A DNA stretch of 64,000 nt, from contig CBDDCA010000006.1 in the NCBI GenBank assembly GCA_965226055.1, forward strand, positions 96,001-160,000. Direction: 5' to 3'. This document shows positions 1,811 to 59,246 of this stretch, piece after piece. The notes beneath the pieces are model-generated. The model made no database searches. It was not told the origin of the DNA and was given only the letters and a program-made list of their open reading frames with translations. Numbering within the stretch: the first letter of the stretch is position 1; every line of letters starts with the position of its first letter. The position numbers were made by a program, and so were the translations under genes. The DNA comes from Spirochaetia bacterium. GTDB lineage: Bacteria; Spirochaetota; Spirochaetia; WTKD01; G963693115.

Positions 1811-4800
1811 TTATGAGGTACATGCTGGATCATTTTGATCCTTTGGGTACTTTGCTGTTTTTCCATCCATAGCTGAATTTTTAAAAGTACCACTCAATAT
1901 TGATGCTTTACATAATCTCCACGATGATAAATCTTGATCAAATTTACGAGCCTCTCTAAACATATTGTATATAATAGTAACATTCTGTACATCCCAATCT
2001 CCTATGTCTTGATTAAAAACAGATGCACTGTTGAACATACTATTCATAAGAGTAACCTTACTCATATCCCAATCTCCTATATCTTGATTAAAAGCAGATG
2101 CCAAAGTAAACATATTAGTCACATTAGTAACCTTACCCGTATCCCAATTTCCTATATCTTGATTAAAGACAGTAGCAGAATCAAACATAGCACCTGTATT
2201 CGTTACATTGCTGGTGTTCCACTGTGTTATGTCTCCATTAAAAGTACTATCTCCACTAAATAAACTACTCATATCAGTAATGGCACTGGTATCTATCATG
2301 TTGAGGTTGGGGCTATTAGTGTTTTGTCTCCCTGCTCCTCTTTCTGCAGTGATAATATCTTGTAGTGCTTTCTTTGTCGTTGGTCTGTAATAAGTAGCTA
2401 CTTGTCCTGCTAGTTTCACCAGTCCTGTCTCTACATTGATAGTCGCAAGTACTTTTCCTCCCGAATAGCCCCCTGAAGTAATTGTACATAGTACTACTCC
2501 ATAGTTATACTCAGTTATAGCTGTATCATGTATGTTTGATTTATTTGCTGTGCCTATTATTGTTACTGTATTGGTATTTTTTGCAAATGTTACTGTTAGG
2601 CCTGTTTCTTCTTTGAGTGTGCTGTCATCTAAGATGCTTTCATCACAGGTAAAGGTAAGTCCACTAGGACTGATACTGGTAAGTACTCTCGTTGTATTTT
2701 GTGCGAGTGCTGTGCCTACTGTTGCTGATACCTTTGTGGCATTTCCTATCACTACTGCTTGCGTACTGGCAGATACTGCTGTTGCTTCTGCTGATACTTT
2801 TGTCTTTTTGAGGCTGTTCACTGCTACTGCGGTGATATAGTACTTTGTATTCAATCGTAGATTGCTTATTGTATAGCTTGTTGCTCCTGTTGGTACATCG
2901 TCTTTTTCTGCTCCTTCTTGTGCATCGCTTGCTGCTTTTGCCTGTGTTTTTACTGTTGCTCCATCTATGTTTGTTTTTGAGGCTGCATAGTATACTATAT
3001 AATCTATTTGATTATCTCTTAAATTAGTCGTTCCATCTTCTGTCGTTCCTTTTACGGTTGGGGCTGTTATGGTAAGTACTATGGTTACCCCTTGTGCATT
3101 TGCTTGTATGGTGGGCTTTCCTGGTGTGGCATAGGCTTCTTTTGCGATAAACTCCTTGCGTTCTCCTGTTGCTTCTTTGTTGGTATCGGTGCTGTTTACT
3201 GCTTGTACTACTATTTCGTAGCTTGTGCCTACTGTCAATCCTGTCAGAGTGCTGTTGGTTGTATCTGCTGCTACTGTTGTGGAGCTTCCTGCTGCTGTTT
3301 TTATTTGTGCTACTGTCCTTGTTGTACTGCCATTTTTAGCTACTTTGTATACTTTGTACGATACTTGTGCTGTTGTTAGGGTAGCTCCTTTATTTGTTTT
3401 GTGGCTTGCACTGAGGCTGGGAGCTGTCCATGATAGCCTTGCACTCCCTCCTGTTACTCCTCCTACTTGTATGCTACTTACTTCTGCGGGAGCTGTCGCT
3501 TGTGATGCGGTTGTTACACTTGCCACTGTTGAGGATGCTACTTTCTTGCTAGGGTCTGTTTTTATTGCTACTTCTACCACAAAGTAGTATTTTGTCGCTC
3601 CTTTTACTGCTACTACTGGTGCTGTGTCTGATGATAAGCCTAAACTCGCAAGGGCTTGTACTGTGTACACTCCGCTACTTGCACTGCCTAGGTTTACTTT
3701 TCTGCCTGCAAGTACTTCTGCTACTGTAGGGTTAGTGTCTTTCTGTAAGCCATACACTGTGTATACTAGCTGATTACTAGCGGTTATGTTTGTGCCATCG
3801 TAGTCTTTTGCTCCTGTAAATGTGCTTAGCTCGGTAAGTACCAGCTTTATTGTGCCTGCTGTGTTTGTTGACTGTGATACTACCAACTTTCCTGTGAGTA
3901 ATGACTGGCTGGGTGCTACTGCTTTGGAAGTATAGATTTCCTTTATTTCTGTTACATCGGTGTAAAAGCCTGCAGGAAAGAGCTTGTCGCTATTTGTTGC
4001 ATCGTAATTGGGGGATGTCGTGTTTACTATCCTTACTCCTATGTAGTAGTCTTTTGCTGTTTCTATGGGCGTTGCTCCTGCATTGCTTCCACTGGTGCTG
4101 TCTACTATTGCTATGGATATTGTGTCCTGAGTTGTTCCTGTTGCTTTTGTGTATTTTGCTACTCTCGTACTGCTCTTTTCTGTTGCCCATAGTGCTGATA
4201 CGCTGGCTGGCTTTCCTGTGGTATCTTCTTTCTTGAGGTATAGCACATAGTAGGCAAGGTCTGTTGCTGCAAGGGCATTGCCATTTGCCTTGCTCACTCC
4301 TGCTATAGCTGAGGCATTTACTTGCACTGTTATGACTTTTTTCCCTCTATTGCTTCCTGTTGTAGGCACTGCAAATACTACTGCATTACTGTTAGTGTAG
4401 GTGGTGCTTTTTGGGGTATTTGGTGGTGCAGTAAGTGTTGCTTTCTTTATTGTTACTGATGCTCCTGTACTATACGAGGGATTGAGGCTGTTTATCGCTT
4501 CTACTCCTGCGGTATAGTCTGCTCCTTTTGTTCCTATAAATGTTGCTTTTAATGGAGTGCTGTTTCCCGCTAGCTCCCGTGTTTGTACTCCTGCAAGGGC
4601 TTTTATTTCGTCTAGTGTCTTTGTGCTGTGGTCTCCTGCTGCTATGTATACTTTGTACTGTATTTGTGCTTGCGTGAGTTTTGCTCCACTGGGTGCTTTG
4701 TTATCATTGGTAATGTCTCCTGCACTAAATGTATAGACTGCTTTTGCAGTTGTTTGGGTTACTGACTCTATGGAGAGCTTTGCATCTTTGGGAACGGGCG

Positions 4801-6901
4801 GTGCTGTCGAGGTGCTATCGTATACTGCTACTGCATCACTCAGCGCGGTTACGGGGCTTACTCTGTTATTTGCTATTTGCAGAAAATCAAAGCGATAATT
4901 CTTGGCATTTGCTTGGCTCTTGGGTACTTCTACGCCATCTGCTATGCCAAAGCTAATGGTGGTTGCTGTGTTTGTTATGCTTTTTTCTGCTATTAAGGTA
5001 GCTCCATCTTTCATACGCAAAGTATAGTATCGTCCTATGCCTGGAGCTTGCTTAAAAGTTGCTTTTATTTGTATTGCTCCTGTTTTGTCAAGGGTAGGCT
5101 TGCTTTGAAAGAGATCCTCTGAGGGAGCTGTGAGTGAGTTGGGGGTGGTTATATCTTTTGTTGCTTGGGTGCTTTTGTTTTCTGAGTAATCAAGCGTGAG
5201 TATTGTTATGGTGTATGTTTTTCCTTGCACAAGTTCTTCGACAGAGAGTGAGTTTGTAGGATAAGCTACTTTTTTCTCATTTACTACTGTGGTGCTTGTG
5301 CCTTTCTCTGCTATGCTTATACTGTATTCTTTTATGTCTTTGTTATTGGCTTTTGTTGTATCAGGTGCTGTCCATGTTATCTGTGTGCCTATCTTTGCTG
5401 CTGATACAAAAGGATAGCTTGCTTGTATGTTTGTCACTGCATCGGGGGCGGTGCTATCTGCTTCTGTGCTGACTGTGACTGTTGCTTCTGTTCCTTTGTT
5501 GCCTGCACTGTCCATTGATACGACTGCCACTGTATACTCGATGGTGGCTTTGAGGCCTGGTATCTGTGTATTGCGTACTGTTCTCTCTGTTATTGTTACT
5601 GTCTTTGCTGCTGTTGTGCTGTCCTTTTCTGTTGCTGTTATAGTCACTCCTGCGTAGTCTCGTACATCGGGGGCTTGCCAGCCTACTACTATGCTTGTTG
5701 CTCCTCCTGTGGCACTTACATTGCTTACAGGCTCTGTACTTTTGTCTGTTGTTGCTTGTTCTTTTGACACTGCAGTGGAGTACTTTCCGTTTTTAAAAAC
5801 ATACACTTCTACTTTGTAGGTAAGCGTGCCATAGAGTTTTGTGAGTGCTATGCCATCCTTTGCTACATACACAGTGGCATATTCTTGGTTGTCTGCACTT
5901 GCTCCGCTGACATTGGTTGCACTTGTATCTTTGTCTATTGTCTCCTCTGCTACTACTGTATTTGTTGCAGTTGCTATCACTCGTACTTGGAGGCTTTTTT
6001 CTGTACTTCCTGTTCCAAAATCAAAACTCCCCCACTTGATAAGCAGGCTTTCATCGGCTGGACTATTGCTTTTATCGTTTGCTGTTACTGTAAGGTCTGA
6101 TGCGGAAAGTGGCGTTACTGTTTGCGAGAGTGCTGATGGCACTATGCCTCTGAGTGCTTGCTTTGCCGTGCTTTTGTTACCGTTGCTATCTTTGTACACT
6201 ACTACTATATCATAGCTGATGCCATCTATAGTGGGGACAGCAATGCTCACCTCTCCTTGTGTTACATCTTGTACTGATACTTCTGTCTTTACCCCAGTAG
6301 TTCTTTCTATCACCTGTATTGTGGCTTCGGCTATGTCTGTTTTGCCTGACGAGAGCAGTGCTTTGTCCCATGTTAGCTTTATGCCATTTGTTGCTGATTC
6401 TACTGCTACCTGTGTAAAGGTGTCCTGTGGTGCAGTTTCATCGGTCAGTGTTGTCACAGAGCGGGTTGTTTTTGGTGATACTTCTGTGTCTGAGCCTGAG
6501 TCTGATTTTTGGGCTTCTATCTCTACTGTATAATCGGTAGTAGCATGTAAGCCTCTGAGGGTGTAGGGTCTGTTTTGTTGAAACAATGCACGATATTCTA
6601 TTGCAGGAACACGCACTTCTATTGATTGTGCTGGTGCGGTAGATGTAGCTTTTACGACTACATGCGTAGCTTCGCTTGGAGCTTGCCAGCGTAACGAAAG
6701 TGTCCCATCGTTGCCTGCTGCTTGTATCTGCACATTGGACACTGATGCGAGTGTCGGGGTTACTGGCGTTCCCCCTCCGCCTGAGGAACTGCTACTGCTC
6801 TCTGCACATCCTACGAGTACGAGGGTAGTCATTGCTAGCACTGCTAGTATAGTTAGGTTTTGCTTACTTTGTAGCTTACTATTTAGATGATATTTTTTCA
6901 T
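1811..6901 (-). CDS. Giant surface lipoprotein, FN3-like repeats plus C-terminal BspA/DUF285 repeats (paralog 1)
   Basis: Lipobox LVGC followed by Ser/Gly tether; repeated W-x-AP...Y-x-V FN3-like units; C-terminal 25-aa repeats FNQDIGxWDxxxVTxMxxMF; RBS AGGAG upstream. Confidence 0.85.
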   Translation of the reverse strand: MKKYHLNSKLQSKQNLTILAVLAMTTLVLVGCAESSSSSSGGGGTPVTPTLASVSNVQIQAAGNDGTLSLRWQAPSEATHVVVKATSTAPAQSIEVRVPAIEYRALFQQNRPYTLRGLHATTDYTVEIEAQKSDSGSDTEVSPKTTRSVTTLTDETAPQDTFTQVAVESATNGIKLTWDKALLSSGKTDIAEATIQVIERTTGVKTEVSVQDVTQGEVSIAVPTIDGISYDIVVVYKDSNGNKSTAKQALRGIVPSALSQTVTPLSASDLTVTANDKSNSPADESLLIKWGSFDFGTGSTEKSLQVRVIATATNTVVAEETIDKDTSATNVSGASADNQEYATVYVAKDGIALTKLYGTLTYKVEVYVFKNGKYSTAVSKEQATTDKSTEPVSNVSATGGATSIVVGWQAPDVRDYAGVTITATEKDSTTAAKTVTITERTVRNTQIPGLKATIEYTVAVVSMDSAGNKGTEATVTVSTEADSTAPDAVTNIQASYPFVSAAKIGTQITWTAPDTTKANNKDIKEYSISIAEKGTSTTVVNEKKVAYPTNSLSVEELVQGKTYTITILTLDYSENKSTQATKDITTPNSLTAPSEDLFQSKPTLDKTGAIQIKATFKQAPGIGRYYTLRMKDGATLIAEKSITNTATTISFGIADGVEVPKSQANAKNYRFDFLQIANNRVSPVTALSDAVAVYDSTSTAPPVPKDAKLSIESVTQTTAKAVYTFSAGDITNDNKAPSGAKLTQAQIQYKVYIAAGDHSTKTLDEIKALAGVQTRELAGNSTPLKATFIGTKGADYTAGVEAINSLNPSYSTGASVTIKKATLTAPPNTPKSTTYTNSNAVVFAVPTTGSNRGKKVITVQVNASAIAGVSKANGNALAATDLAYYVLYLKKEDTTGKPASVSALWATEKSSTRVAKYTKATGTTQDTISIAIVDSTSGSNAGATPIETAKDYYIGVRIVNTTSPNYDATNSDKLFPAGFYTDVTEIKEIYTSKAVAPSQSLLTGKLVVSQSTNTAGTIKLVLTELSTFTGAKDYDGTNITASNQLVYTVYGLQKDTNPTVAEVLAGRKVNLGSASSGVYTVQALASLGLSSDTAPVVAVKGATKYYFVVEVAIKTDPSKKVASSTVASVTTASQATAPAEVSSIQVGGVTGGSARLSWTAPSLSASHKTNKGATLTTAQVSYKVYKVAKNGSTTRTVAQIKTAAGSSTTVAADTTNSTLTGLTVGTSYEIVVQAVNSTDTNKEATGERKEFIAKEAYATPGKPTIQANAQGVTIVLTITAPTVKGTTEDGTTNLRDNQIDYIVYYAASKTNIDGATVKTQAKAASDAQEGAEKDDVPTGATSYTISNLRLNTKYYITAVAVNSLKKTKVSAEATAVSASTQAVVIGNATKVSATVGTALAQNTTRVLTSISPSGLTFTCDESILDDSTLKEETGLTVTFAKNTNTVTIIGTANKSNIHDTAITEYNYGVVLCTITSGGYSGGKVLATINVETGLVKLAGQVATYYRPTTKKALQDIITAERGAGRQNTNSPNLNMIDTSAITDMSSLFSGDSTFNGDITQWNTSNVTNTGAMFDSATVFNQDIGNWDTGKVTNVTNMFTLASAFNQDIGDWDMSKVTLMNSMFNSASVFNQDIGDWDVQNVTIIYNMFREARKFDQDLSSWRLCKASILSGTFKNSAMDGKTAKYPKDQNDPACTS

Positions 6902-6928
6902 AATGTTCTCCTTGTTGGTATCTCTATT

Positions 6929-7013
6929 GTGTAATTATCATTACACCTAAGCATCATTATAGTACAAATACTATTTTTTGTGGTTTATCTGAAAATTAAA
7001 AAAAAAAAAAAAA
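6929..7013 (-). promoter_or_regulatory. Promoter region of paralog 1: palindrome, -10 TATAAT, upstream T16 tract
   Basis: GTGTAAT-N4-ATTACAC at 6929-6946; TATAAT (minus) at 6956-6961; A16 on + strand at 6998-7013; region conserved upstream of paralog 3. Confidence 0.65.
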
Positions 7014-7124
7014 TGGGATGAAATACACAAAAATGTACAGCGAAATGTGATAATAATGCTATATTTATCTTTACGAAAATAAGGATACCATACTATAAAT
7101 TATAGTTAGTATGATATGTACTCA

Positions 7125-9451: not shown

Positions 9452-9483
9452 AGTATTATACCTCCTATATTCTTTGTATTAAA

Positions 9484-10161: not shown

Positions 10162-10268
10162 ATCTCTACTATACCGTTTGTATTGTACTGTATGATATTC
10201 ATAAAAAGGAAAAATATACCCACCGTATATCATCCAATATATTACATACACACTACAATAAGTATACT

Positions 10269-11231: not shown

Positions 11232-11243
11232 GAGATATAGCTT

Positions 11244-11327
11244 TGCCGGAGACCGGACTTGAACCGGTACAGCATCACTGCCGCAGGATTTTAAGTCCTG
11301 TGTGTCTACCAATTTCACCACTCCGGC
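11244..11327 (-). tRNA. tRNA-Leu (anticodon TAA)
   Basis: GCCGGAGTGGTGAAATTGGTAGACACACAGGACTTAAAATCCTG...GGTTCAAGTCCGGTCTCCGGCA; cloverleaf with long variable arm; CCA not encoded. Confidence 0.95.
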
Positions 11328-44164: not shown

Positions 44165-44200
44165 CTATAGCAAGAAAGGAGCTATCCTTTCTTGCTATAG
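44165..44200 (-). terminator. Hairpin after lipoprotein paralog 2
   Basis: Perfect 16-bp IR CTATAGCAAGAAAGGA-GCTA-TCCTTTCTTGCTATAG. Confidence 0.8.
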
Positions 44201-44221: not shown

Positions 44222-47200
44222 CTATGATGTACATGCTGAACTACCAACCTTTGGATACTTGCTTGTTTTGCCAGCCATAGCTGATCCTCGAAAGTCATCG
44301 CGATGTATTCTTGACACTTTACACAATTTCCATGATGACAAATCTTGATCAAAATTAGAAGCATTCAAAAATATAGCAAGAAAATTAAGATTCCTATCAG
44401 GTGTAACCTTCCGTACATCCCAATCTCCTATATCTTGATTAAAAGCACTTGCTCCACTAAACATCAACAATACCTTGGTAACATTACTCATATTCCAGTT
44501 TCCTATATCTTGATTAAATTTAGTAGCATCAGTAAACATATTAGTCATATTGGTTACTTTCCCCACATCCCAATCTCCTATGTCTTGATTAAATTTAGTA
44601 GCACTAGCAAACATCCCCCCCATATCCATTACATTACTGGTATTCCACTGTGTTATGTCTCCATTAAAAGTACTATCTCCACTAAATAAACTAAGCATAT
44701 CAGTAATAGCACTGGTGTCTATCATGTTGAGGTTAGGGCTATTAGTATTTTGTCTCCCTGCTCCTCTTTCTGCAGTAATAATATCTTGTAGTGCTTTCTT
44801 TGTTGTTGGTCTGTAATAAGTAGCTGACTGTCCTGCTAGTTTCACCAGTCCTGTCTCTACATTGATAGTCGCAAGTACCTTTTGTCCTGAGTATGCTCCT
44901 GCAGAAGTAATGGTACACTCCACTACCTCATAGTTATACTCAGTTATAGCAGTATCATGTATGTTTGATTTATTTGCTATGCCTGTTATTGTTACTGTAT
45001 TGGTATTTTTTGTAAACGATATTGTTAAGCCTGTTTCTTCTTTGAGTGTGCTATCATCTAAGGTGCTTTCATCACAGGTAAATGATAGTCCACTAGGACT
45101 GATACTGGTAAGTACTCTCGTTGTATTTTGTGCGAGTGCTGTGCCTACTGTTGCTGATACCTTTGTGGCATTTCCTATCGCTACTGCTGGCGTACTGGCA
45201 GATACTGCTGTTGCTTCTGCTGATACCTTTGTCTTTTTGAGGCTGTTTACTGCTACTGCGGTAATATAGTACTTTGTATTCAATCGTAGGTTGCGTATTG
45301 TATAGCTTGTTGCTCCTGTTGGTACATCGTCTTTTTCTGCTCCTTCTTGTGCATCGCTTGCTCCTTGTGCCTGTGTTTTTACTGTTGCTCCATCTATGTT
45401 TGTTTTTGAGGCTGCGTAGTATACTATATAGTCTATTTGATTATCTCTTAAATCAGTTCCATCTTCTGTCGTTCCTTTCACAGTAGGGGCTGTTATGGTA
45501 AGTACTATGGTTGCTCCTTGTGCATTTGCTTGTATGGTGGGCTTTCCTGGTGCGGCATAGGCTTCTTTTGCGATAAACTCCTTGCGTAGTCCTGTTGCTT
45601 CTTTGCTGGTATCGGTGCTGTTTACTGCTTGTACTACTATTTCGTAGCTTGTGCCTACTGTCAATCCTGTCAGAGTACTGTTGGTTGTGCCTGCTGCTAC
45701 TGTTGTGGAGCTTCCTGCTGCTGTTTTTATTTGTGCTGCTGTCCTCGTTGTACTGCCACTTTTGGCTACTTTGTATACTTTGTACGATACTTGTGCTGCT
45801 GTTAGGGTGTCTCCTTTGTTTGTTTTGTGGCTTGCATTGAGGCTGGGAGCTGTCCACGATACTGTTGCACTCCCTCCTGTTACTCCTCCTACTTGTATGG
45901 TGCTTACTTCTGCGGGGGCTGTCGCTTGTGATGCGGTTGTTACACTTGCCACTGTCGATACTGCTTTTTTGCTTGTGTCTGTTTTTACTGCTACTTCTAC
46001 CACAAAGTGATACTTTGTGGCTCCTTTTATTGCTACTACTGGTGCTGTGTCTTCAGATACGCCTAAACTGCTAAGGGCTTGTACTGTGTACACTCCGCTA
46101 CTTGCTGTGCCTATGTTTACTTTTCTGCCTCTTTGTACTTCTGCTACTGTTGGTGTTGTGTCTTTCTGTAAGCCGTATACTGTGTATACGAGCTCATCAT
46201 TGCTTGTCACTGTTGTGCCATCTTTGTTTTTTGCTCCTGTTATTGTGCTTAACTGTGTGAGTACGAGCTTTATTGTTCCTGTCGTGTTTGTTGAGGGTGA
46301 TACTACCAGCTTGCCTGTTAAGGACGATGTAGGGGCTGTTGCTTTTGAGGTGGGGATAGTGCTTAATTCTAGTTTTTGTATCAGTGCAGGGTCTTTGCTT
46401 TGTGCTTTCTTTGTGGCATAAGGATTGAGGCTGTTTATTGCTTCTATGCCTATGGTATATACTGCTCCTTTTGTTCCTATAAATGTTCCTCGTAAGCTGC
46501 TGTTTCCTGCTATCTCTTGTGTTTGTACTCCTCCCATTGCTTTTATTTCCGCTATAGTTTTAGTACTCTGGTCTCCTGCTACTATGTATACTTTGTACTG
46601 TATTTGTGCCTGTGTGAGTTGTCTGTCATTGGGTGCTTTATGATTGCTGGTAATTGTTCCTTTTTGAAACTCGTACTGTACGGTATCGCTTGTCTGTGTT
46701 GATGTTTCGATAAACAGAGTGAGATTTTCTGGTGCTGGGGGGACAGTGGATACTGCATCATATACTGCTACTTTTTCAGTGAGCGTTGTTGGGGGACTTA
46801 CTCTGTTATTTTCTACTGTGAGAAAGGTAAAGCTATAGCTTTTTGCATTTGCTTGTGTTGAGGATACTTCTATGCCATCTGCTATGCCAAAGCTAATGGT
46901 GGTTGCTGTACTTGTTATGCTTTTTTCTGCTACCAGTGTTGTGCCATCTAACATACGCAGAGTGTAGTACTTATTTGATCCAGGAGCTTGCTTAAAGGTT
47001 GCTTTTATTTGTATTGCTCCTGTTGTTGTAACTAGGGCAGGCTTGCTTTGAAAGAGATCTTCTGAGGGAGCTGTAAGTGAGTTGGGCGTGCTTATGTCTT
47101 TTGTTGCTTGGGTGCTTTTATTTTCTGAGTAATCATAGGTGAGTATTGTTATGGTATATGTTTTTCCTTGCACAAGTTCTTCAACAGAGAGTGACTTTGT

Positions 47201-48896
47201 GGGATAGGGTATTTTCTTCTCGCTCAGTACTGTGGTACTTGTGCCTTTCTCTTGTATGCTTATGCTGTATTCTTTTATGTCTTTGTTATTGGCTTTTGTT
47301 GTATCGGGAGCTGTCCATGTTATCTGTGTGCCTATCTTTGCTGCTGATACAAAGGGATAGCTTGCTTGTATGTTTGTCACTGCATCGGGGGCGGTGCTAT
47401 CTGCTGCTGTGCTGACTGTGGCTGTTGCTTCTGTTCCTTTGTTGCCTGCACTGTCCATTGATACGACTGCCACTGTATACTCGGTAGTTGCTTTGAGGCC
47501 TGGTATCTGTGTGTTGCGTACTGTTCTCTCTGTTATTGTTACTGTCTTTGCTGCTGTTGTGCTGTCCTTTTCTGTTGCTGTTATAGTCACTCCTGCATAG
47601 TCTCGTACATCGGGGGCTTGCCAGCCTACTACTATGCTTGTTGCTCCTCCTACTGCACTCACATTGGTCGCTGGCTCTGTGCTTTTATCGGTTGTTGCTT
47701 GTTCTTTTGACACTGCAGTGGAGTACTTTCCGTTTTGAGAAACATACACCTCTACTTTGTACGTAAGCGTGCCGTAGAGTTTTGTGAATGCTATGCCATC
47801 TTTTGCTACATACACAGTGGCGTATTCTTTGTTTTGTGCGGTTGCACTGCTGAGTGTTGCAGTACTGCTATTGTTCACAGTTTCCTCTGCTACTACTGTA
47901 TTTGTTGCAGTTGCTATAACGCGTACTAAGAGGCTTTTGTCTGTAAAGGTAACATTTCCCCATTTGATAAGCAGGCTTTCATCGGCTGGGCTATTGCTTT
48001 TATCGTTTGCTGTTACTGTAAGATTTGCCTCTGGCAGTGGCGTTACTGTTTGTGAAAGCTGGGATGCTTGCACGCCTGTCAGTACTGTTGTAGGACTGCT
48101 TGTGTTGTCATTTCTGTCTTTGTAGCGTATTTCTACATCATAGGATATGCCTGCAAGCGTGGAGACATTTGAAAGTATAACTTCTCCTTGCTGTAGGTTC
48201 TGCACGGTAGCTTGCGCAAGCACTATGCCACCAGTCGTGCTTTTTACCACTATTGTGGCTTCGGCTATATCTGTCTTGCCTAGAGCAAGTCGTTCTTTAT
48301 CCCATGTTATCTTTATGCCATCCCCCGACTTCTCTACTCCTACCTGTGTCAATGTGTCCTGTGGTGCAGTAGTATCTATCAGTGTTGTCACAGAGCGTGT
48401 TGTTTTTGGTGATACTTCTGTGTCTTTTTGTGCCTCTATCTCTACAGTGTAGTTGGTGAGTGCTTGTAAGCCTTTGAGTTGGTACGATTGTCCTTGTTGA
48501 AAGAGTGTTTGATATTCTATTGCAGGAACACGCACCTGTATTGATTGTGCTGGTGTCGATGATGTAGCTTTTACGACTACATGTGTGGCTTCGCTGGGAG
48601 CTTCCCAGCGTAATGCAAGTGTCCCATCGTTGCTTGCTACTTGTATCTGCACATTGGACACTGATGCGAGTGTCGGGGTTACCTGTTTTCCCCCTCCGCC
48701 TGATGAGGAACTGCTACTGCCCTCCGAACATCCTACGAGTACGAGGGTAGTCATTGCTAGCACTAAAAATAATGCTACTAGAGTTAGGTTTTGCTTATAT
48801 CGAGAGTGTACCCCCCCCCCCCCCGATTTTTTTCATGCTGTATAGCTCTTTGCTTTTGTAGCTATCGTTTATCCATATTTTCATAAAAACTTTCAT
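44222..48896 (-). CDS. Giant FN3/DUF285 lipoprotein (paralog 2), frameshifted in the signal peptide at a G14 tract
   Basis: RBS AAGGAG plus ATG at 48896 (second ATG 48836) reads MKKI-G14 into TAA; 13 or 16 G joins in frame to ...[24 protein letters not shown] and the 44222-48763 ORF. Confidence 0.85.
48811..48824 (-). repeat. Poly-G14 contingency tract
   Basis: 14 consecutive C on the + strand in an AT-rich genome, inside the signal-peptide coding region. Confidence 0.9.
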
Positions 48897-49013
48897 AAAA
48901 ATCTCCTTTTATTTTATTATCGTATATAGTAATTATAGTACAAAATGCTATTAATTATTCCGTGATACAAGTACTATTAGATACAGATAGCACATAAGAG
49001 AGCAAGAATACAA

Positions 49014-50075: not shown

Positions 50076-50188
50076 ATTGTTAGGAAATTATGTATTTTAC
50101 TCAGCTAAAGCAAATTGAAAGAACTAGCTGAAAATTTCGATAATCTATGTTGATTGTGCTATTTATTTTTGCTTGCATTTGAATAAAG

Positions 50189-51168: not shown

Positions 51169-51692
51169 CCTATTAGCTCCTTGTAGCTTAGTTTAATACC
51201 ACTCCCTTGTTTTAGTTTTTTATTTTCATGCTTATTTTTTTCTTTTTCACCTATACACATCTCATCTATCTCTACTATTCCTGTAAGAGATTTTGTAAAA
51301 TCTACATTTTCTATTATCATTCTTATTCTGTGCATGAGAAACCATGCTGACATTTGCTGTAATCCCAACTCGTTGCTTAATTGTACAGAAGATATACTTT
51401 TTTTACTTGATGTTATCAACCATAAAGCAGCAAAGCATTTTTGTAAAGGTAACTTACAACCTTCAAAGATAGTTCCTTTTTTAATACTAAATTGCGTTTT
51501 GCATCTTTTACATTTATACACATTTCTAGTATTCAACAGAGTACTTTCATTGCATGATTTACAATTATGACATACAACACCATTAGGAAACCTTAATTTT
51601 TCCATATACTTAATACAAGTTTCTTCATCTTTGAATACTCTAAAAAAATCAGCTATACTTTTAACGATTGTACTTTTCATAGTGTTATTCAT
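51165..51692 (-). pseudogene. IS1595-family transposase with internal deletion
   Basis: Zn ribbon CHNC...CKRC, GTIFEG, LGLQQMSAWFLMHRIR, VEIDE, then jumps directly to the C-terminal LSYKELI; most of the DDE core is missing. Confidence 0.85.
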
Positions 51693-51812
51693 ATTACATA
51701 TAGTAGTATATTTTTAGTGGTGTGTCAATTTTTATTCACACCACACTCACGCTATATTTATGGTGTGAGTAATAAAATTTAATTTTCTATTGTTACTATA
51801 GTACCTTTACTA

Positions 51813-52967
51813 TTATAATGATATACGAGCAGCTCCTAAGCATTCGTAAGCCTGCACATTACAAGTCTCATTTTCCGTAGTATCTAATACCACAGCTGGC
51901 TCATGTTTATAAGAGATACCCTGCATCGTATCTGTATAAAACACAATGTACTGTCCATCTGCAATGCCATAATCTTGTTGTGTTAAATATGCTACCCCAT
52001 TTGTCATACTATTATTCCAATCACAGCGCACTTTCATCAATTCAGGGCCATGACGTATTTTGACATACAGTGATGACAAAGCCAAATCTTTCTCTCCTAT
52101 CCAATGAGAACGAGAAAAGTGTACCCTATCTGACTCTTGTTCGTGTAATAGATTGGCATGACATACCCACACAATATTTTCTTCAAACGATTTTTTAGCT
52201 ACATACCAAGGCCCTCCTCCTAACCCTAACCCAGTCCGTTGCCCAATAGTATAAAACCAACTTCCTTCATGTGTTCCTAAAATCTGGTTAGAATGTATAT
52301 CTACTATAGTACCTGTTTTGATACCAAGATGAAATTTCACAAAATCACGATATTTTATCTTGCCAAGAAAACATAATCCTTGACTATCCTTTCTATCCAT
52401 AGTAATTATATTATGTTTCTTTGCATATGAACGTACCGCAGTTTTCTGCATATCACCTAAAGGCATTACTAATTTTGAAAGCTGTTGTTGATTTAGCATA
52501 GAAAGAAAATAGGTTTGATCTTTTCTCATATCACTTGCTGTCAATAAATGGCATATTTCGTTCTTATCTTTGTATATCCTTCCATAATGCCCTGTAATTA
52601 CAGTATCTATATCAGAAACTCGCTCTAAAAATACCCCTAATTTTATATGACTATTACAAAAAATATCTGGACTTGGAGTTCCTCCATTTCGTAACTCATT
52701 AAGCGTATAGCTTACTATTTTCTCCTGATACTCTTGTTGTAGTGATATTACTGTATATGGTATATCTAAATCTTGAGAAATTTTTTTCACATAAGACAAA
52801 TCTTCTTCCCATGGACATTCACCTAAAAAAGAAAGCTCATCTTCTAACCAAATCTTAAGATAGTATAAATGAATGTGTCTTTTAAGAGATGGATGATCAC
52901 TCATAAATCTGTGTACTGCTACAGAACTATCCACTCCACCAGAAACAAGCGCTGCTATATGTTTCAT
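51813..52967 (-). CDS. mnmA: tRNA 2-thiouridylase MnmA
   Basis: SGGVDS, TPSPDIFCN, KDQTYFL, DSQGLCFLG, YTIGQR. Confidence 0.96.
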   Translation of the reverse strand: MKHIAALVSGGVDSSVAVHRFMSDHPSLKRHIHLYYLKIWLEDELSFLGECPWEEDLSYVKKISQDLDIPYTVISLQQEYQEKIVSYTLNELRNGGTPSPDIFCNSHIKLGVFLERVSDIDTVITGHYGRIYKDKNEICHLLTASDMRKDQTYFLSMLNQQQLSKLVMPLGDMQKTAVRSYAKKHNIITMDRKDSQGLCFLGKIKYRDFVKFHLGIKTGTIVDIHSNQILGTHEGSWFYTIGQRTGLGLGGGPWYVAKKSFEENIVWVCHANLLHEQESDRVHFSRSHWIGEKDLALSSLYVKIRHGPELMKVRCDWNNSMTNGVAYLTQQDYGIADGQYIVFYTDTMQGISYKHEPAVVLDTTENETCNVQAYECLGAARISL

Positions 52968-52971
52968 ATAT

Positions 52972-53085
52972 TTATGAAAAGAGCATTTGTATTAGTGATG
53001 AAAATATAACAGCAACAGTTACCCCAGCAATAGCCACTACAAACAATATCCATTTTTCTTTTGTATTTAATCGTTTCTTACTCAT
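52972..53085 (-). CDS. Small single-TM protein (about 37 aa)
   Basis: MSKKRLNTKEKWILFVVAIAGVTVAVIFSSLIQMLFS directly upstream of mnmA; start chosen by inspection. Confidence 0.4.
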   Translation of the reverse strand: MSKKRLNTKEKWILFVVAIAGVTVAVIFSSLIQMLFS

Positions 53086-53285
53086 CTTATTTAGTATACC
53101 ATACAGGACATTCTTGTAAGAAAAATGAATCACAAATTCAAGCATTACATACGACAAAGGAAAAAAAGTAGTTTGTAATGTCAATATTAGCCATTGAATC
53201 TGCAATTTATCTTGTATTTATTACAGTTACTACAGTAATTCATACTGTCTTAAACATAATAAAAGAAATATAAAGGAGTATTTTA

Positions 53286-53969
53286 ATGAGCACAGAAAAT
53301 ACAATAAATCAAGATACAATAGATTGGGACAAAATAGACCTAGAAGCATTAGATGACAAAAAAGTAGAATTCTTTTATAACAATGCAATACAACTTGTTA
53401 ATAATATAAGAAAAACATCAGATACCCATAGACAAAAATCAGGTCTTTACTTGACAGGATGTATACTATTGCTAACAATAATAATCCCTTTAGTAATGCA
53501 AATAGTACCTTCAATATCCAAAATAACATATACAATATTTAAGGAGAATACTACATGCTTATTTATATTTGTTGTTTTATTAATTACTATCGGTATACTA
53601 GTAATGTTTATTATCATAACAGGATTTTGGAAAGCAATTAAACAATTTCATATAACATTACAAAATAAACATTTTATCAGACCATATTTACCACCGCGAA
53701 GCTTTTTTGAAAATGAAGTATATAAAAAAGAGATGAAAGAAATAAAAATAGATACAATAAAATTATTAGAAAATAAAATAATCCCTGAAAACTTTAATAC
53801 CCAAATAGAGAATACTAAATCATTAGACAAAGGAATAAAGTATTTTATAAAAGCATTCTATATGCTTATAATTTCTCCTATAATACTTTCTATATTGATA
53901 ACAATACTATTAGTTCTACTTCAAATATATAATCCTCAATTACTATATACTATTTCTTACCATTATTAG
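53286..53969 (+). CDS. Hypothetical membrane protein (3 TM), very AT-rich
   Basis: AAAGGAG RBS; three hydrophobic segments. Confidence 0.65.
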   Translation: MSTENTINQDTIDWDKIDLEALDDKKVEFFYNNAIQLVNNIRKTSDTHRQKSGLYLTGCILLLTIIIPLVMQIVPSISKITYTIFKENTTCLFIFVVLLITIGILVMFIIITGFWKAIKQFHITLQNKHFIRPYLPPRSFFENEVYKKEMKEIKIDTIKLLENKIIPENFNTQIENTKSLDKGIKYFIKAFYMLIISPIILSILITILLVLLQIYNPQLLYTISYHY

Positions 53970-54105
53970 ATATTGGAGGATCATAACTTTCTCGTTCTAT
54001 CATTCTTGGATCAATTCTCAAAGTAGTCCTAGCAGTATATCTGCCATTATCAGAAGACACCTTTTGTGGTTGAGGTGTCTGTTTAGTTTGTTTATTCTTA
54101 CTCAT
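53950..54105 (-). CDS. Putative small hydrophilic protein, 51 aa
   Basis: MSKNKQTKQTPQPQKVSSDNGRYTARTTLRIDPRMIERESYDPPISNNGKK; convergent overlap with 53286-53969; no clear RBS. Confidence 0.35.
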   Translation of the reverse strand: MSKNKQTKQTPQPQKVSSDNGRYTARTTLRIDPRMIERESYDPPISNNGKK

Positions 54106-54163
54106 AATTATATTATAGCATATTTACACTATTTTTATTATCTCTCTTCTGCAAGTTTGCGGA

Positions 54164-54199
54164 TTCAAGGACTAATTGCGACAGCAAAGGCTTTAGTAG
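54164..54199. repeat. 36-bp dispersed repeat, copy B
   Basis: Matches 11393-11428 at 32/36. Confidence 0.7.
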
Positions 54200-54352
54200 T
54201 AATCCAATAGAATATTCGACTCATCCTTTTTCTTATAATACAATATACAGCACAGGAGCTTTTGAAGAAGAGCCAACAAGATCTATTTTACGTAATGAAC
54301 GCAGTGCAGAAGTAGACAAGCAATGTCTTCCAAAAAGACTACCTATAAAGAA

Positions 54353-54379
54353 AAAAGAGAGTGCTATGCACTCTCTTTT
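54353..54379 (-). terminator. Terminator of paralog 3
   Basis: Identical to the 1770-1796 hairpin. Confidence 0.85.
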
Positions 54380-54391
54380 AGCTACACTACC

Positions 54392-57300
54392 CTACGATGA
54401 GGGACATGCTACTTTATCACTTTTATCCTTTGGGTACTGTGCTGTTTTGCCAGCCATAGCTGAACCGGAAAAAGTACTATTAAGTATTTGTACCTTACAT
54501 ACTTTCCACGATGATAAATCTTGGTTAAATGAACTAGCTTGAAAAAACATAATATTAATAGCAGTAACATTCTGTACATTCCAACTCCCTATATCTTGAT
54601 TAAATTTAATTGCTCCTGTAAACATACCAATCATAGTAGTAACTTTACTCGTGTCCCAATCTCCTATGTCTTGATTAAATTTAATTGCTCCTGTAAACAT
54701 ACTAATCATAGTAGTAACTTTACTCGTATCCCAATCTCCTATGTCTTGATTAAATACACTTGCATCAGTAAACATAGCCCCTGTACTCTCTACATTACTC
54801 ATATTCCACTGTGTTATGTCTCCATTAAAAGTACTATCATCATTGAATAAATTACTCATATCAGTAATAGCACTGGTATCTATCATATTGAGGTTGGGGC
54901 TAGGGTTACTGTTTCCTCCTGAACCTTGCCTTGTTTTTTCTTCGCTGATAATAGTTTGTAGTGCTGATTTTGTTGTTGGTCTGTAATAGGCTTCTGCTTT
55001 TCCTGATGGTGCTGTTCTTATATCTGTCCGTATAACGATAGTGGCTGGCACTTTTTTCTTTGAAGCGGTTATTGTACACTGTGCTACATCATAGCTATAC
55101 TCAGTAATGGCAGTGTCTCGTATATTGGACTTATTTGCTATGCCTGTTATGGTAACTGTTTTGCTACTCTGTTCAAACGATACTGTAAGGCCTGTTTCTT
55201 TTTTGATTTTCTCTGCATCTGCCTCTTGTATATTGGCATCACAGGTAAAGGCATTGCCACTGGGTGTGCTGGTAAGTACTCTTGTAATATTTGATGCTAG
55301 TGCTGTACCTACTGTTGCTGATACTATGCTAGTGTTTCCTATAGCTATTCCTCTTGCTTCAAACTCGTGGCGTAGTCCAGTGGATGCTTTTGTGTCATCG
55401 GTGCTGTTTACTGCTTGTACTACTATTTCGTAGGTCGTTCCGTTTGTCAATCCTGTCAGGGTAGTGTTTGTTGTTCCTGCTGCTATGTTTTTTGTTGCTG
55501 TATTAGCATTTGCTTTTATCTGTGCTACGCTTCTCGTTGTATCACCACTCTTAGCAATGCTGTATACTTTGTACGATACCTGTGCTACTGTTAGGGTAGC
55601 TCCTGTATTTGCTTTGTGGCTTGCACTGAGGCTGGGAGCTGTCCATGATATTCTCATACCTGTCTGGGCTACTCTTGTCTGTATAGTTGATACTTCTGCG
55701 GGGGCGGTCGCCTGCGATGCTGTCGTTACACTTGCCACTGTTGAGGATGCTACTTTCTTGCTTGGGTCTGTTTTTACTGCTACTTCTACCACAAAATAAT
55801 ACTTTGTTGCTCCTTTTATTGCTACTACTGGTGCTGTGTCTGAAGATAAGCCTAAACTCGCAAGGGCTTGTACTGTGTACACTCCGCTACTTGCACTGCC
55901 TAGGTTTACTTTTCTGCCTGCAAGTACTTCTGCTACTGTAGGGTCAGTGTCTTTCTGTAAGCCATACACGGTGTATACTAGCTGATTGCTTGTTGTTACT
56001 GTTGTGCCATCGTAGTCTTTTGCTCCTGTAAATGTATTTAGCTCGGTAAGTACCAGCTTTATTGTTCCTGTAGTGTTTGTTGACTGTGATACTACCAACT
56101 TTCCTGTCAGTAATGACTGGCTGGGTGCTACTGCTTTGGAAGTATAGATTTCTTTTATTTCTGTTACATCGGTGTAAAAGCCTGCAGGAAAGAGCTTGTC
56201 GCTATTTGTTGCATCGTAATTGGGAGATGTTGTGTTGACTATCCTCACTCCTATGTAGTAATCTTTGGCTGTTTCTATGGGGGTTGCTCCTGCATTGCTT
56301 CCACTGGCGCTGTCTACTATTGGTATGGATATGGTTGATTGAGTTGTTCCTGTTGCTTTTGTGTACTTTGCTACTTTTACACTACTTTTTTCCACTGCCC
56401 ATAAAGCTGATACACTGGCAGGCTTTCCAGTAGTATCTTCTTTCTTGAGGTATAGCACATAGTACGCAAGGTCTGTTGCTGCAAGGGCATTGCCGTTTGC
56501 CTTGCTCACTCCTGCTATGTCTGAGGCATTTACTTGTACTGTTATGACTTTTTTCCCTCTATTGCCTCCTGTGCTAGGCACTGCAAATACTACTGCATTA
56601 CTATTAGTGTAGGTGGTGCTTTTTGGGGTATTTGGTGGTGCAGTAAGCGTTGCTTTCTTTATTGTTGCTGATGCTCCTGTACTATACGAGGGATTGAGGC
56701 TGTTTATTGCTTCTACTCCTGCGGTATAGTCTGCTCCTTTTGTTCCTATAAATGTTGCTTTTAATGGAGTGCTATCTCCTGCTAGCTCCCGTGTTTGTAC
56801 TCCCGCAAGGGCTTTTATTTCTTCTAGTGTCTTTGTGCTGTGGTCTCCTGCTGCTATGTATACTTTGTATTGTATTTGTGCCTGTGTGAGTTTTGCTCCA
56901 CTAGGTGCTTTGTTATCATTAGTAATAGTACCTGCACTAAATGTATAGGCTGCTTTTGCAGTTGTTTGGGTTACTGACTCTACGGAGAGCTTTGCATCTT
57001 TTGCAGCGGGCGGTGCTGTCGAGGTGCTATCGTATACTGCTACTGCATCAGCAAGTGCGGTTACGGGGCTTACTCTGTTATTTGCTATTTGCAGAAAATC
57101 AAAGCGATAATTCTTGGCATTTGCTTGGCTCTTGGGTACTTCTACGCCATCTGCTATCCCAAAGCTAATGGTGGTTGCTGTGTTTGTTATGCTTTTTTCT
57201 GCTATTAAGGTAGCTCCATCTTTCATACGCAGAGTATAGTATCGTCCTATGCCTGGAGCATTCTTAAAAGTTGCTTTTATCTGTATAGCTCCTGTTGTGT

Positions 57301-59134
57301 CAAGTGTAGGCTTGCTTTGAAAGAGATCCTCTGAGGGAGCTGTGAGTGAGTTGGGGGTGGTTATGTCTTTTGTTGCTTGGCTACTTTTGTTTTCTGAGTA
57401 ATCAAGCGTGAGTATTGTTATGGTGTATGTTTTGCCTTGCACAAGTTCCTCAACAGAGAGTGATGTTGTGGGATAGGGTATTTTCTTCTCGCTCAGTACT
57501 GCAGTGCTTGTGCCTTTTTCTGCTATGCTTATGCTGTATTCTTTTATGTCTTTGTTGTTGGCTTTTGTTGTATCGGGGGCTGTCCATGTTATCTGTGTGC
57601 CTATCTTTGCTGCTGATACAAAAGGATAGCTTGCTTGTATGTTTGTTACTGCATCGGGGGCGGTGCTATCTGCTGATGTGGTTACTGTGGCTGTTGCTTC
57701 TGTTCCTTTGTTGCCTGCACTGTCCATTGATACGACTGCCACTGTATACTCAGTGGTAGCTTTGAGGCCTGGTATCTGTGTATTGCGTACTGTTCTCTCT
57801 GTTATTGTTACTGTCTTTGCTGCTGTTGTGCTGTCCTTTTCTGTTGCTGTTATAGTCACTCCTGCATAATCTCGTACATCGGGGGCTTGCCAGCCTACTA
57901 CTATGCTGGTTGCTCCTCCTATGGCACTTACATTGCTTACAGGCTCTGTGCTTTTGTCTGTTGTTGCTTGTTCTTTTGACACTGCAGTGGAGTACTTTCC
58001 GTTTTGAGAAACATACACTTCTACTTTGTAAGTAAGCGTACCGTAGAGTTTTGTGAGGGCTATGCCATCTTTTGCCACATACACAGTGGCGTACTCTTGG
58101 TTGTCTGCACTTGCTCCGCTGACATTTGTTGCACTTGTATCTTTGTCTATTGTCTCTTCTGCTACTACTGTATTTGTTGCGGTTGCTGTGACTCGTACTT
58201 GGAGACTTTTTTCTGTACTTCCTGTTCCAAAGTCAAAACTCCCCCACTTAATAAGCAGGCTTTCATCGGCTGGGCTATTGCTTTTATCGTTTGCTGTTAC
58301 TGTAAGGTCTGATGCGGAAAGTGGCGTTACTGTTTGTGAGAGTGCTGATGGCACTATGCCTCTGAGTGCTTGCTTTGCCGTGCTTTTGTTACCATTGCTA
58401 TCTTTGTATACTACTACTATATCATAGCTGATGCCGTCTATAGTGGGTACTGCAATAGTTACTTCTCCTTGTATTACATCTTGTACTGATACTTCTGTCT
58501 TTACATTAGTAGTTTTTTCTATCACTTGTATTGTGGCTTCGGCTATGTCTGTCTTGCCTGACGAGAGCAGTGCTTTGTCCCATGTTAGCTTTATACTATC
58601 GTTTTGTGCTTTCTCTACTGCTACCCGTGTAAAGGTGTCCTGTGGTGCAGTTTCATCGGTTAGTGTTGTCACAGAACGGGTTGTTTTTGGTGATACTTCT
58701 GTGTCTGAGCCTGAGTCTGATTTTTGGGCTTCTATCTCTACAGTATAGTCAGTGGTAGCGTGCAAGCCTCTGAGGGTGTAGGGTCTGTTTTGTTGAAACA
58801 ATGCACGATATTCTATTGCAGGAACACGCACCTGTATTGATTGGGCTGGTGTTGTTGATGTAGCTTTTACGACTACATGCGTAGCATCACTGGGAGCTTG
58901 CCAGCGTAACGAGAGTGTCCCATCGTTGCTTGCTGCTTGTATCTGCACATTGGACACTGATGCGAGTGTCGGTGTTACTGAATTTCCCCCTCCGCCTGAG
59001 GAACTGCTGCTACTCTCTGCACATCCTACGAGTACGAGGGTAGTTATTGCTAGCACTAAAAATAGTACTACAACTATAAATATGTTCAGCTTACCATTTA
59101 GCTGATAGTTTAGTTTTTTCATTACTTTTTTCAT
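54392..59134 (-). CDS. Giant FN3/DUF285 lipoprotein (paralog 3)
   Basis: Same architecture as paralog 1; near-identical over the first ~1,150 aa, different distal stalk and tip. Confidence 0.85.
54594..54743 (-). repeat. 75-bp tandem duplication of one DUF285 repeat
   Basis: Two units differing at 2 nt ([18 protein letters not shown] / [18 protein letters not shown]). Confidence 0.9.
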
Positions 59135-59161
59135 AATATTCTCCTTGTTGGTATCTCTATT

Positions 59162-59246
59162 GTGTAATTATTATTACACCTAAGCATCATTATAGTACAA
59201 ATACTATTTTTGTGTGTCATATCTACAAAAAAAAAAAAAAAAAAAA
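59162..59246 (-). promoter_or_regulatory. Promoter region of paralog 3: palindrome, -10 TATAAT, upstream T20 tract
   Basis: GTGTAAT-N4-ATTACAC at 59162-59179; TATAAT at 59189-59194; A20 on + strand at 59227-59246. Confidence 0.65.

Follow-up and report, generated by a model that had tools for sequence, protein, structure and literature searches.

The DNA analysed here is a 64,000-nucleotide (nt) stretch, hereafter the window, of contig CBDDCA010000006.1 from a Spirochaetia bacterium whose six-contig, 2.25-Mb assembly (89% complete) is designated G000. Its minus strand carries three paralogous genes for giant lipoproteins, each accompanied by one long homopolymer. Gene 1 (1811..6901) and gene 3 (54392..59134) have intact frames encoding precursors of 1696 and 1580 amino acids (aa) with the same architecture, as established from the list of open reading frames (ORFs), the translations, Pfam and, for gene 3, a model of the stalk. 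The main frame of gene 2 (44222..48826) is open from stop to stop over 1534 codons and comprises the distal part of the signal peptide together with lipobox, stalk, neck and head; the ORF as listed (44222..48763, 1513 aa) begins at a GTG inside this frame, and with the tract as long as assembled no in-frame start provides the main frame with a full signal peptide. The three translations follow a common plan, in which a basic N-terminus, a hydrophobic stretch and a lipobox L-V-G-C (in the context ...TTLVLVGC(A/S)E...) are succeeded by a Ser/Gly linker, a stalk of ~1300 residues, a neck and C-terminal 25-residue repeats. In gene 1 the signal peptide carries the lipobox LVGC, the stalk is of the beta-sandwich/FN3 type, the neck is Ig-like and the head belongs to DUF285/PARCEL.

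The assignment as lipoproteins was judged by eye and with a regular expression: the products of genes 1 and 3 display the charged n-region, hydrophobic h-region and L-[ASTVI]-[GAS]-C motif of signal peptidase II substrates (MKK...L-V-G-C-A-E), and gene 2 encodes the same lipobox, to which its full leader is joined only at an in-frame tract length. Pfam was run on genes 1 and 3 and detected in both, at a cut-off of 25 bits, DUF285 (PF03382; E 1.9e-54 and 4.3e-54, 182.9 and 181.8 bits) and four stretches of fn3 (PF00041; E 3.3e-27 and 2.8e-25, 94.9 and 88.8 bits), while gene 2 was placed by full-length alignment of its translation with the other two. A previous sequence-only reading of this DNA had reported three paralogous giant lipoprotein genes with a lipobox at these positions, which the ORFs, translations and Pfam matches confirm.

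That reading had also tied each gene to one homopolymer, and the three tracts, all on the minus strand and named here by their sense-strand base, are indeed the sole homopolymers of at least 11 nt in the window, one for each family gene. Just upstream of the gene 1 promoter, T16 (6998..7013) starts 112 nt upstream of the ATG and ends 36 nt upstream of TATAAT (6956-6961). Just upstream of that of gene 3, T20 (59227..59246) ends 6 nt upstream of a -35-like ATGACA (59215-59220), which is followed by a 17-nt spacer and TACTAT/TATAAT (59189-59197). Both T tracts end 6-13 nt upstream of a -35-like hexamer, a placement that corresponds to an UP-element position and not to the -35/-10 spacer. The promoter positions rest on the conserved TATAAT and on the alignment of paralogues. 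We rejected the possibility that the poly-T is the T-run of an upstream terminator, the preceding 60 nt folding only weakly (-5.9 and -2.1 kcal/mol). The G14 tract (48811..48824) lies within the signal-peptide coding region of gene 2. Its leader (48825..48896) has a Shine-Dalgarno-preceded ATG at 48896 and another ATG at 48836 and reads in a single frame as far as the tract; TATAAT is at 48932-48937. Translation from the ATG at 48896 reads MKVF...MKKIGGGGG through G14 and stops after 33 codons, the leader ORF and the main frame being one base out of register at G14.

Downstream of the stop codons, RNAfold applied to the 130 nt after gene 1 predicted a terminator-like hairpin with a T-run right after the stop (approximately 1765..1800, minus strand); the same GC-rich hairpin sequence, again with a T-run, follows gene 3 (approximately 54350..54379, minus strand), and a long hairpin without a T-run follows gene 2 (approximately 44165..44200, minus strand). 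That the lipoprotein genes stand alone, as read earlier, finds support in the sequence. Scans for promoters and terminators returned no terminators because they covered the 5' regions only; the terminators are known from folding the 3' ends. As previously noted, the loci lie between unrelated genes: their flanks are housekeeping genes (topA, recJ, mutL, priA, dusA and mnmA). By its TopA the organism falls nearest to Spirochaetia genomes, with an identity of just 51%.

A tract-bearing gene family in two species

Three proved to be an undercount. A genome-wide paralogue search in G000 recovered 35 full-length copies as stop-to-stop frames, amounting to 166 kb or 7.4% of the genome, and frames of at least 300 aa resembling gene 1 at E <1e-20 numbered 81 (365 kb, 16.2%). 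The mature proteins range from ~1400 to 1700 aa among copies, with stalk modules present or absent. Homopolymer lengths in this genome are bimodal: the background ends at 10 nt and is followed by 60 tracts of 11-30 nt. Among A/T runs we counted hundreds of 8-9 nt, four of 10, none of 11-12 and 29 of 13-30, and among G/C runs five of 8-9 and then 31 of 11-20. By our own arithmetic, assuming independent bases at 35% GC, ~0.02 G/C runs of at least 11 nt and ~1.4 A/T runs of at least 13 nt would be expected by chance, as against the 31 and 29 observed.

Most of the long tracts (46/60) are found between -350 and +200 nt relative to the 5' end of a family gene or of a related giant DUF285/FN3 gene and, read in the sense direction, these 46 are without exception T or G. 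Copies with N-terminal identity of at least 70% number 37, of which 19 are of T type, 14 of G type and four without a tract. The G tract sits in a stereotyped DNA context (...AAAAATC-Gn-TACACTCTCGATATAAGCAAAAC...), and the T tract is flanked by a conserved upstream sequence and a conserved promoter; in core copies with near-identical modules the tracts nevertheless span G9-G16 and T14-T27. All 33 tract-bearing copies possess their own leader and promoter module. Three genes for ~2550-aa FN3/DUF285 lipoproteins carry both switches (C4:62832-62969, C5:123067-123200 and C5:450702-450841, contigs of G000 being numbered with C), with T14-T20 located 8-10 nt upstream of a canonical TTGACA-N17-TATAAT and G13-G15 just past the start codon. 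A tandem pair of short family members, 546 and 387 aa long, occupies C5:342478-345393, upstream of a full-length copy; they consist of leader, lipobox, neck and head and have hardly any stalk or none, and their leader reads ...MEKIGR(A/V)... at the usual site of the G tract, as if the tract had decayed. In two contigs a long tract with a family-type leader lies no more than 100 nt from the end (C5:80-93 and C6:35-49), and family genes probably account for some of the assembly gaps.

We scored a G-type copy as in frame when the Shine-Dalgarno-preceded ATG was joined to the main frame. By this definition 2 of the 14 G-type copies in G000 are in frame (G13 and G16) and 12 are out of frame (G9, 11, 12, 14 and 15). 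In the genome of a sister species of the same genus (G001), a G tract precedes the lipobox Cys codon by 91-109 nt at 29 of 38 loci, eight of the 29 being in frame and six having also T13-T17 further upstream; these frame counts leave out five loci where the lipobox pattern failed. Over both genomes 10/43 G-type copies are in frame, near the one-third expected under free length drift. All 12 out-of-frame copies in G000 retain 1500-1564 open codons past the lipobox, and the ratio of nonsynonymous to synonymous divergence (dN/dS) in their stalks has a median of 0.35 and a maximum of 0.41 (66 pairs). Given intact frames and low dN/dS, these copies are not dead and must be translated often enough to stay intact. 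Automatic gene calling would truncate such genes or call them pseudogenes, as 12 of the 14 G-type copies start internally or look frameshifted.

G001 is an independently assembled single-contig genome, and all three window loci are positionally conserved in it, with flanks of 94-98% DNA identity and the same gene order. The contents of the sites have changed to different extents. The counterpart of gene 2 has the same promoter and G14 but only 1420 codons owing to an internal deletion, and is 79-93% identical to gene 2 in the stalk and 68-81% in the neck and head, compared with the 94-98% of the flanks. The site of gene 3 is occupied by a copy that is only 64-89% identical and bears an in-frame G13 poly-G module in place of T20. 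At the site of gene 1 stands a 1579-aa copy with T15 at the promoter and G14 in the leader, as against T16 only. Only two tracts are therefore comparable in length between the species, T16 with T15 at gene 1 and G14 with G14 at gene 2. Conserved sites with replaced contents indicate that the sites are old and that genes and switch modules were replaced while the housekeeping DNA changed by a few per cent.

The family has a narrow distribution. Nine of 31 related genomes (G000 included) matched gene 3 at E <=1e-10, full-length only in G000 and G001 and over DUF285 or single FN3 stretches only in the other seven. A search of one genome per species (185,579 species) returned 38 full-length loci, all in G001, and one DUF285-only match elsewhere. 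When 5.8 billion proteins were searched with stalk residues 40-540, the 70 matches all lay on contigs equal in length to those of the window's assembly or of G001, so that within the public genomes and protein set searched the stalk was not found outside these two genomes. Runs of poly-G of at least 11 nt number 43 in G001 and 0, 0 and 2 in three genomes of other genera of the same family; from these counts the long tracts are, to judge by the sequences, lineage-specific. In G001, 39 of the 43 poly-G runs follow one rule, plus strand over the first chromosome half and minus strand over the second, which suggests that the family genes point in the direction of replication; in the window, the GC skew and the strand of the genes are in line with this.

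Long tracts also occur in other genes of G000. Four genes of ~330-390 aa starting MSKQDKK... have a poly-C of 14-20 nt (sense strand) ~30 nt after the start (C1:13372-13389, C3:96327-96340, C4:27722-27736 and C6:662400-662419); the C4 member, the one scanned, is a type I restriction-modification (RM) specificity subunit (Methylase_S, E 2.3e-36), and the four are candidates for phase-variable HsdS. A 565-aa type III mod-like DNA methylase (C6:564297-565994; N6_N4_Mtase, TypeIII_RM_meth) carries G15 in its last codons (565977-565991). Upstream of two ~2020-aa Big_5/Kelch proteins without DUF285, G14 lies at a distance of ~110 nt (C6:715624-715637 and C5:644322-644335), in the promoter region and not in the leader, and two adjoining genes of ~320-330 aa contain G13 and G14 tracts (C6:301332-301344 and 302460-302473). 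The window itself includes an intact mutL (17357-19294; TIGR00585, E 4.8e-125), which means that the long tracts persist in a genome seemingly keeping mismatch repair. Elsewhere in the window, tandem 102-bp (34-residue) repeats occur in 13 and ~7 copies (28767-30118 and 30401-31312) within the minus-strand ORFs 28731-30248 and 30344-31444, the 34-residue period being suggestive of tetratricopeptide-like repeat proteins.

Stalk mosaicism and head divergence

The stalks of genes 1 and 3 share ~91-93% aa identity and that of gene 2 stands at ~77%, so that the near-identical stalk described beforehand applies to the first pair and more weakly to gene 2. Along each window gene the best-matching paralogue switches in almost every 300-nt segment, at 92-99.7% identity, and for none of the three genes does a single paralogue exceed ~91% overall. 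A GENECONV-like test used 1298 polymorphic sites of the stalk; in 439 of 595 pairs the run of shared sites was longer than any obtained in 100 permutations of site order. On this sequence evidence we conclude that gene conversion between complete genes has made mosaics of the stalks. Pairwise dS (0.35 in the stalk, 0.42 in the neck and 0.59 in the head) is lowest in the stalk, which fits homogenisation by conversion; the corresponding dN/dS values are 0.28, 0.39 and 0.64.

Over the last 300-500 nt, which encode the head, the best paralogue match is only ~80-88%. Column identity over the 35 copies falls from 0.7-0.97 in the stalk to 0.38-0.61 in the head, where insertions and deletions are frequent, and the DUF285 tip foreseen as divergent is indeed the most divergent part of the protein. 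The heads of the window genes occupy 1814..2392, 44225..44803 and 54395..54973, all on the minus strand. That of gene 1, delimited by structure model and repeat analysis, comprises ~193 aa with five 25-residue PARCEL repeats and a C-terminal cap, and includes a 75-bp tandem repeat at 1991-2189; that of gene 2, delimited by translation and comparison with the sister species, has PARCEL repeats with a 75-bp tandem repeat at 44415-44615; that of gene 3, delimited by translation and repeat search, has 75-bp repeats at 54588-54776, two units of which are 92% identical, pointing to a recent repeat duplication or gain. From 200 repeats in 42 heads we derived the consensus VTxMxxMFxxASxFNQDIxxW, in which the variable positions are the x's: F8, F14, N15, Q16, D17, I18 and W21 are nearly fixed, whereas positions 3, 5, 6, 9 and 10 carry 3.1-3.8 bits of entropy. 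The number of repeats varies from three to six, with five in 25 of the 42 heads.

A structure model of the last 330 residues of gene 1, built on a 42-row alignment of paralogues and G001 copies, reached a mean predicted local distance difference test score (pLDDT) of 78, and above 90 in the repeat block. When residues 138-330 of this model were compared by VIA-align, all 50 matches listed were leucine-rich-repeat (LRR) or LRR-like proteins (Z 7.5-11.2), the best of those listed being Treponema pallidum TpLRR (6mlx_A; Z 11.2, root-mean-square deviation 3.3 over 163 residues). The head is thus predicted to be an LRR-like solenoid, in agreement with the LRR-like tip read from the sequence; Z values of such size in repeat folds show shared architecture and not kinship. 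Foldseek against the PDB gave no match for the head model at E <=0.001 and weak Ig-like rows for the neck only, and a PDB sequence search with the last 229 residues of gene 1 gave no match at E <=0.01. A 1200-residue stalk model is almost all beta strand (mean pLDDT 71, predicted template modelling score 0.42) and fits about a dozen beta-sandwich modules, a number estimated from the strand pattern and recurrent T-A-P linkers and not a profile count.

Among eight partial ORFs inspected we found no silent cassette: three have their own leader and lipobox, one is the 5' part of a G16 copy, and four are broken or contig-edge fragments. Both short ORFs that consist of neck and head only (2/2) have their own signal peptide or leader and a lipobox. 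Recombination, which the earlier reading had raised, is real but takes the form of conversion among complete genes, silent cassettes having been absent from these partial ORFs. Cassette-based antigenic variation of the vls/tprK/pilS type was rejected, given 33 tract-bearing copies with their own leader and promoter and heads without a close donor. A diversity-generating retroelement was likewise rejected, no RVT_1 (PF00078) match being present in the 89% complete G000 under conditions in which control genomes matched; template repeats were not searched separately.

Proposed tract-driven variation and its alternatives

We consider it probable that these genes form a contingency, that is phase-variable, surface repertoire: a genus-restricted family of giant lipoproteins with 35 copies here and 38 in the sister species. 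The earlier picture of a dispersed repertoire with conserved stalks, diversified heads and a design matching simple-sequence-repeat contingency genes finds support in the sequence, and the tracts lie where contingency loci would be expected to have them, G14 between start codon and lipobox and T16/T20 just upstream of the -35 region. The presence of long tracts on other classic types of contingency gene in G000, namely four HsdS-like genes and one type III mod-like methylase, strengthens this reading.

The proposed protein is anchored by a lipid at its N-terminus and would consist of an FN3/Ig-like rod followed by an Ig-like neck, with three to six PARCEL/DUF285 repeats as its distal head. Each gene would be its own transcription unit with one of two interchangeable 5' switch modules, some G001 copies and the 2,5xx-aa subfamily carrying both. 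In the poly-G module, slipped-strand mispairing at replication would alter the length of the tract within the signal-peptide codons and thereby bring the start codon in or out of frame, giving a heritable and reversible ON/OFF state; for gene 2, which is assembled at G14 and hence out of frame, such a textbook frameshift switch is likely from its sequence. In the poly-T module, tract length at the UP-element site may alter helical phasing and DNA shape between the upstream flank and the core promoter, with a graded or multiphasic output. That the promoters of genes 1 and 3 are tuned in this way is suggested by analogy, and we lean towards it only slightly. Independent switching at many loci would provide each cell with a different subset of heads, which may bind ligands at the cell surface. 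Gene conversion would keep the stalks alike while reshuffling stalks and switch modules, and the heads, exempt from homogenisation, would diverge at the x positions of the repeat, which face the solvent.

Several observations weigh against this proposal. A search of public runs turned up seven in four studies, all stored as contigs, and four of them (X2, X4, X6 and X7) were compared with window positions 48300-59700. Their contigs end at 48812-48848 and 59285-59289, and among the contigs listed none bridges the tract of gene 2 or of gene 3. Because the tract flanks are common to paralogues, contig breaks are expected there and carry no information on heterogeneity. Among metagenome contigs, 0 matches were obtained for an exact pattern that covered the G tract with its two flanks. 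Variation of tract length within populations accordingly has no direct support from the run contigs. The identical G14 at gene 2 in both species fits a stable tract as well as chance. If long reads miscalled homopolymers, the assembled tract lengths and the ON/OFF calls may be off by a base or two. Long G/T runs also cause RNA polymerase to slip, which blurs a clean ON/OFF distinction. Scanning the three 5' regions for the promoter consensus yielded no more sites than shuffled sequence did, and with the poly-T outside the -35/-10 spacer an on/off effect is not guaranteed. Head dN/dS is below 1 overall (0.64, with 3% of pairs above 1), by which positive selection is not proven and which relaxed constraint fits too. 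Finally, a lipoprotein in a diderm spirochaete may face the periplasm, and surface exposure is uncertain to that extent.

In the same run comparison, short 'joints' appeared in the gene 3 head (54465-54994), with sides of 21-37 nt at 90% likeness, and were taken as cross-mapping of paralogous heads and not as alleles. A 366-nt X6 contig on this head shows 4.4% differences as against ~1.3% in the flanks and may come from a paralogue.

As regards genes 1 and 3 only, the poly-T could be a static promoter element, either an UP element or a curved protein-free stretch, under which expression would be constitutive. A/T-rich UP elements are common, the tracts are in the UP-element position and not in the spacer, and the run contigs, which end at the tracts, displayed no variation. 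We nevertheless regard this explanation as unlikely. Helicobacter pylori tracts at such a position do tune promoters (PMC4081817). Moreover, A/T runs in G000 jump from at most 10 nt to 13-30 nt, the long ones being almost confined to the family and its relatives, lengths of 14-27 occur between modules with near-identical flanks, and the gene 1 locus has 16 in one species and 15 in the other.

Another explanation applies to all copies and treats the tracts as leaky attenuators, on which RNA polymerase slips so that every copy yields a low, roughly constant amount of in-frame mRNA and cells are alike. RNA polymerase is known to slip where nine or more identical bases follow one another, steady low expression would account equally well for out-of-frame copies that are intact and under purifying selection, and the shared G14 at gene 2 agrees with it. 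The spread of G9-G16 and T14-T27 among near-identical modules, together with length differences between species at conserved loci, speaks for changes of length in the DNA itself, and the in-frame share of 10/43 is what free drift at the DNA level predicts. DNA and RNA slippage are not exclusive, and as a replacement for tract-length switching we find the attenuator quite unlikely.

It is very unlikely that the tracts are incidental and that most copies are silent donors for recombination, in the manner of Borrelia vls, T. pallidum tprK or Neisseria pilE/pilS, even though mosaicism is pervasive, most G-type copies are out of frame, and replacement between species has affected both switch modules and entire genes at conserved loci. 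The copies have their own promoter, Shine-Dalgarno sequence, signal peptide and lipobox, genes 1 and 3 also having terminators; an array of promoterless cassettes is absent, the two short neck-plus-head ORFs having a leader and lipobox of their own; and the conversion tracts fall in the stalk, the heads being the part least shared. An assembly artefact, with paralogues chimeric or collapsed and tract lengths and frame states due to sequencing errors, is extremely improbable despite the two contig ends at tracts and the breakage of short-read contigs throughout family genes, since the three loci with their neighbours and gene order are reproduced in the independently assembled G001, contigs of independent runs match the unique flanks into or next to the G tract and to ~40 nt upstream of T20, and misassembled chimeras, which the sequence-only reading had named as a possible undoing of its own proposal, would not preserve open frames of at least 1500 codons in each of 35 copies.

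A wider proposition, which we put forward as an open and tentative one, is that of a genus-restricted 'phasome' in which ~60 tracts would drive the combinatorial display of 35-38 giant lipoproteins encoded by 7% of the genome (16% with related giants), through two swappable modules and with the same kind of tracts on RM specificity genes. Should this be true, it would exceed every other repeat-driven surface repertoire outside Mollicutes in size and be the first such in a gut spirochaete lineage without a cultured member; PARCEL repeats would also have been paired with a 5' poly-G switch a second time, independently. If the tracts do switch, a sixth of a small genome would be spent on stochastic long-stalked binding proteins with astronomically many surface combinations, offering a natural setting in which to ask how many contingency loci a bacterium can sustain and to compare a promoter dimmer with a frameshift switch on one family. 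It could also show a division of work between gene conversion in the stalk and local hypervariation in the head. The heads may serve in attachment to a host or partner, immune evasion or evasion of phages that use them as receptors.

Comparison with known systems

In the literature on DUF285/PARCEL phase variation and on homopolymer or lipoprotein variation in spirochaetes we found no such spirochaete family. The sequence-only reading had recognised no described spirochaete system in this architecture, and for spirochaetes this stands, but the combination of PARCEL/DUF285 with 5' poly-G is known in Mollicutes: Röske et al. 2010 (PMC2996958) describe PARCEL lipoproteins with 5' contingency tracts (poly-G) in Mycoplasma capricolum. 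For M. agalactiae, Nouvel et al. 2010 report 12-13 scattered drp genes in variable loci, whose phase variation the authors there judged unlikely (PMC2824730). The lipoproteins of these mollicutes (drp MAG1330 and MAG3260, and those of M. capricolum) resemble the present family in having the same 25-residue repeat and in forming scattered families in fast-changing loci. The present host, however, is a diderm spirochaete and not a wall-less mollicute, the head is small and distal on an FN3/Ig stalk of ~1300 residues, there are ~35-38 copies per genome against 12-13 drp genes, the tracts measure 11-30 nt here against G8-G13 there, and two types of switch are exchanged between loci.

For the poly-T module the nearest likeness is H. 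pylori sabA, an adhesin gene with an intergenic T-tract beside its -35 whose length acts as a multiphasic rheostat on RNA-polymerase binding (PMC4081817). In genes 1 and 3 the T tract similarly precedes a -35-like hexamer by 6-13 nt, a likeness in sequence; the tract here is found on 19 paralogous genes and not on single-copy outer-membrane protein genes, and the proteins are unrelated. In the surface lipoprotein genes Vlp of M. hyorhinis and Vmm/Vmc of M. mycoides/M. capricolum, a homopolymer or dinucleotide repeat between -35 and -10 sets the length of the spacer. There, as here, each gene has its own repeat-bearing promoter, and independent switching there gives combinatorial surface mosaics, whereas in the present family the repeat is upstream of -35 and the products are giant stalk-and-head proteins instead of small repetitive lipoproteins.

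Among spirochaetes, the tpr genes of T. pallidum, ~12 in number, encode beta-barrel/MOSP-type proteins, and a poly-G near the promoter, upstream of the coding region, modulates their transcription and makes them phase-variable. They share with the present genes the occurrence of spirochaete poly-G tracts on a paralogous envelope-protein family, which in our case consists of lipoproteins with FN3 and PARCEL domains. A parallel in spirochaete gene conversion between paralogous sequences, seen here in the stalks, is offered by Borrelia vlsE/vls and T. pallidum tprK; those systems have one expression site with promoterless cassettes and rewrite variable regions, while here the genes are complete and the heads are exchanged least.

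With respect to the protein itself, fibrillar adhesins and Periscope proteins also project a binding domain outward from the cell on a repetitive stalk of varying length (PMC9210967, PMC8201768). The anchor here is an N-terminal lipid and not a sortase or autotransporter, stalk length differs between paralogues and not between alleles, and the head is PARCEL/LRR-like. The modelled head resembles TpLRR (Tp0225, 6mlx) and the BspA-type LRR proteins 4h09, 4fs7 and PcpA (4cp6), with Z of 11.2, 10.2, 9.5 and 9.4 among the matches listed, at only 8-12% sequence identity and with a repeat that has 25 residues and the DUF285 signature. In the best reading, which proceeds by analogy, the family would stand closest to the Mycoplasma PARCEL lipoproteins and to the T-tract of Helicobacter sabA. 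The principle, that of repeat-driven contingency lipoproteins, is already known; what is unusual here is the host lineage, the scale, the protein architecture and the pair of swappable switches.

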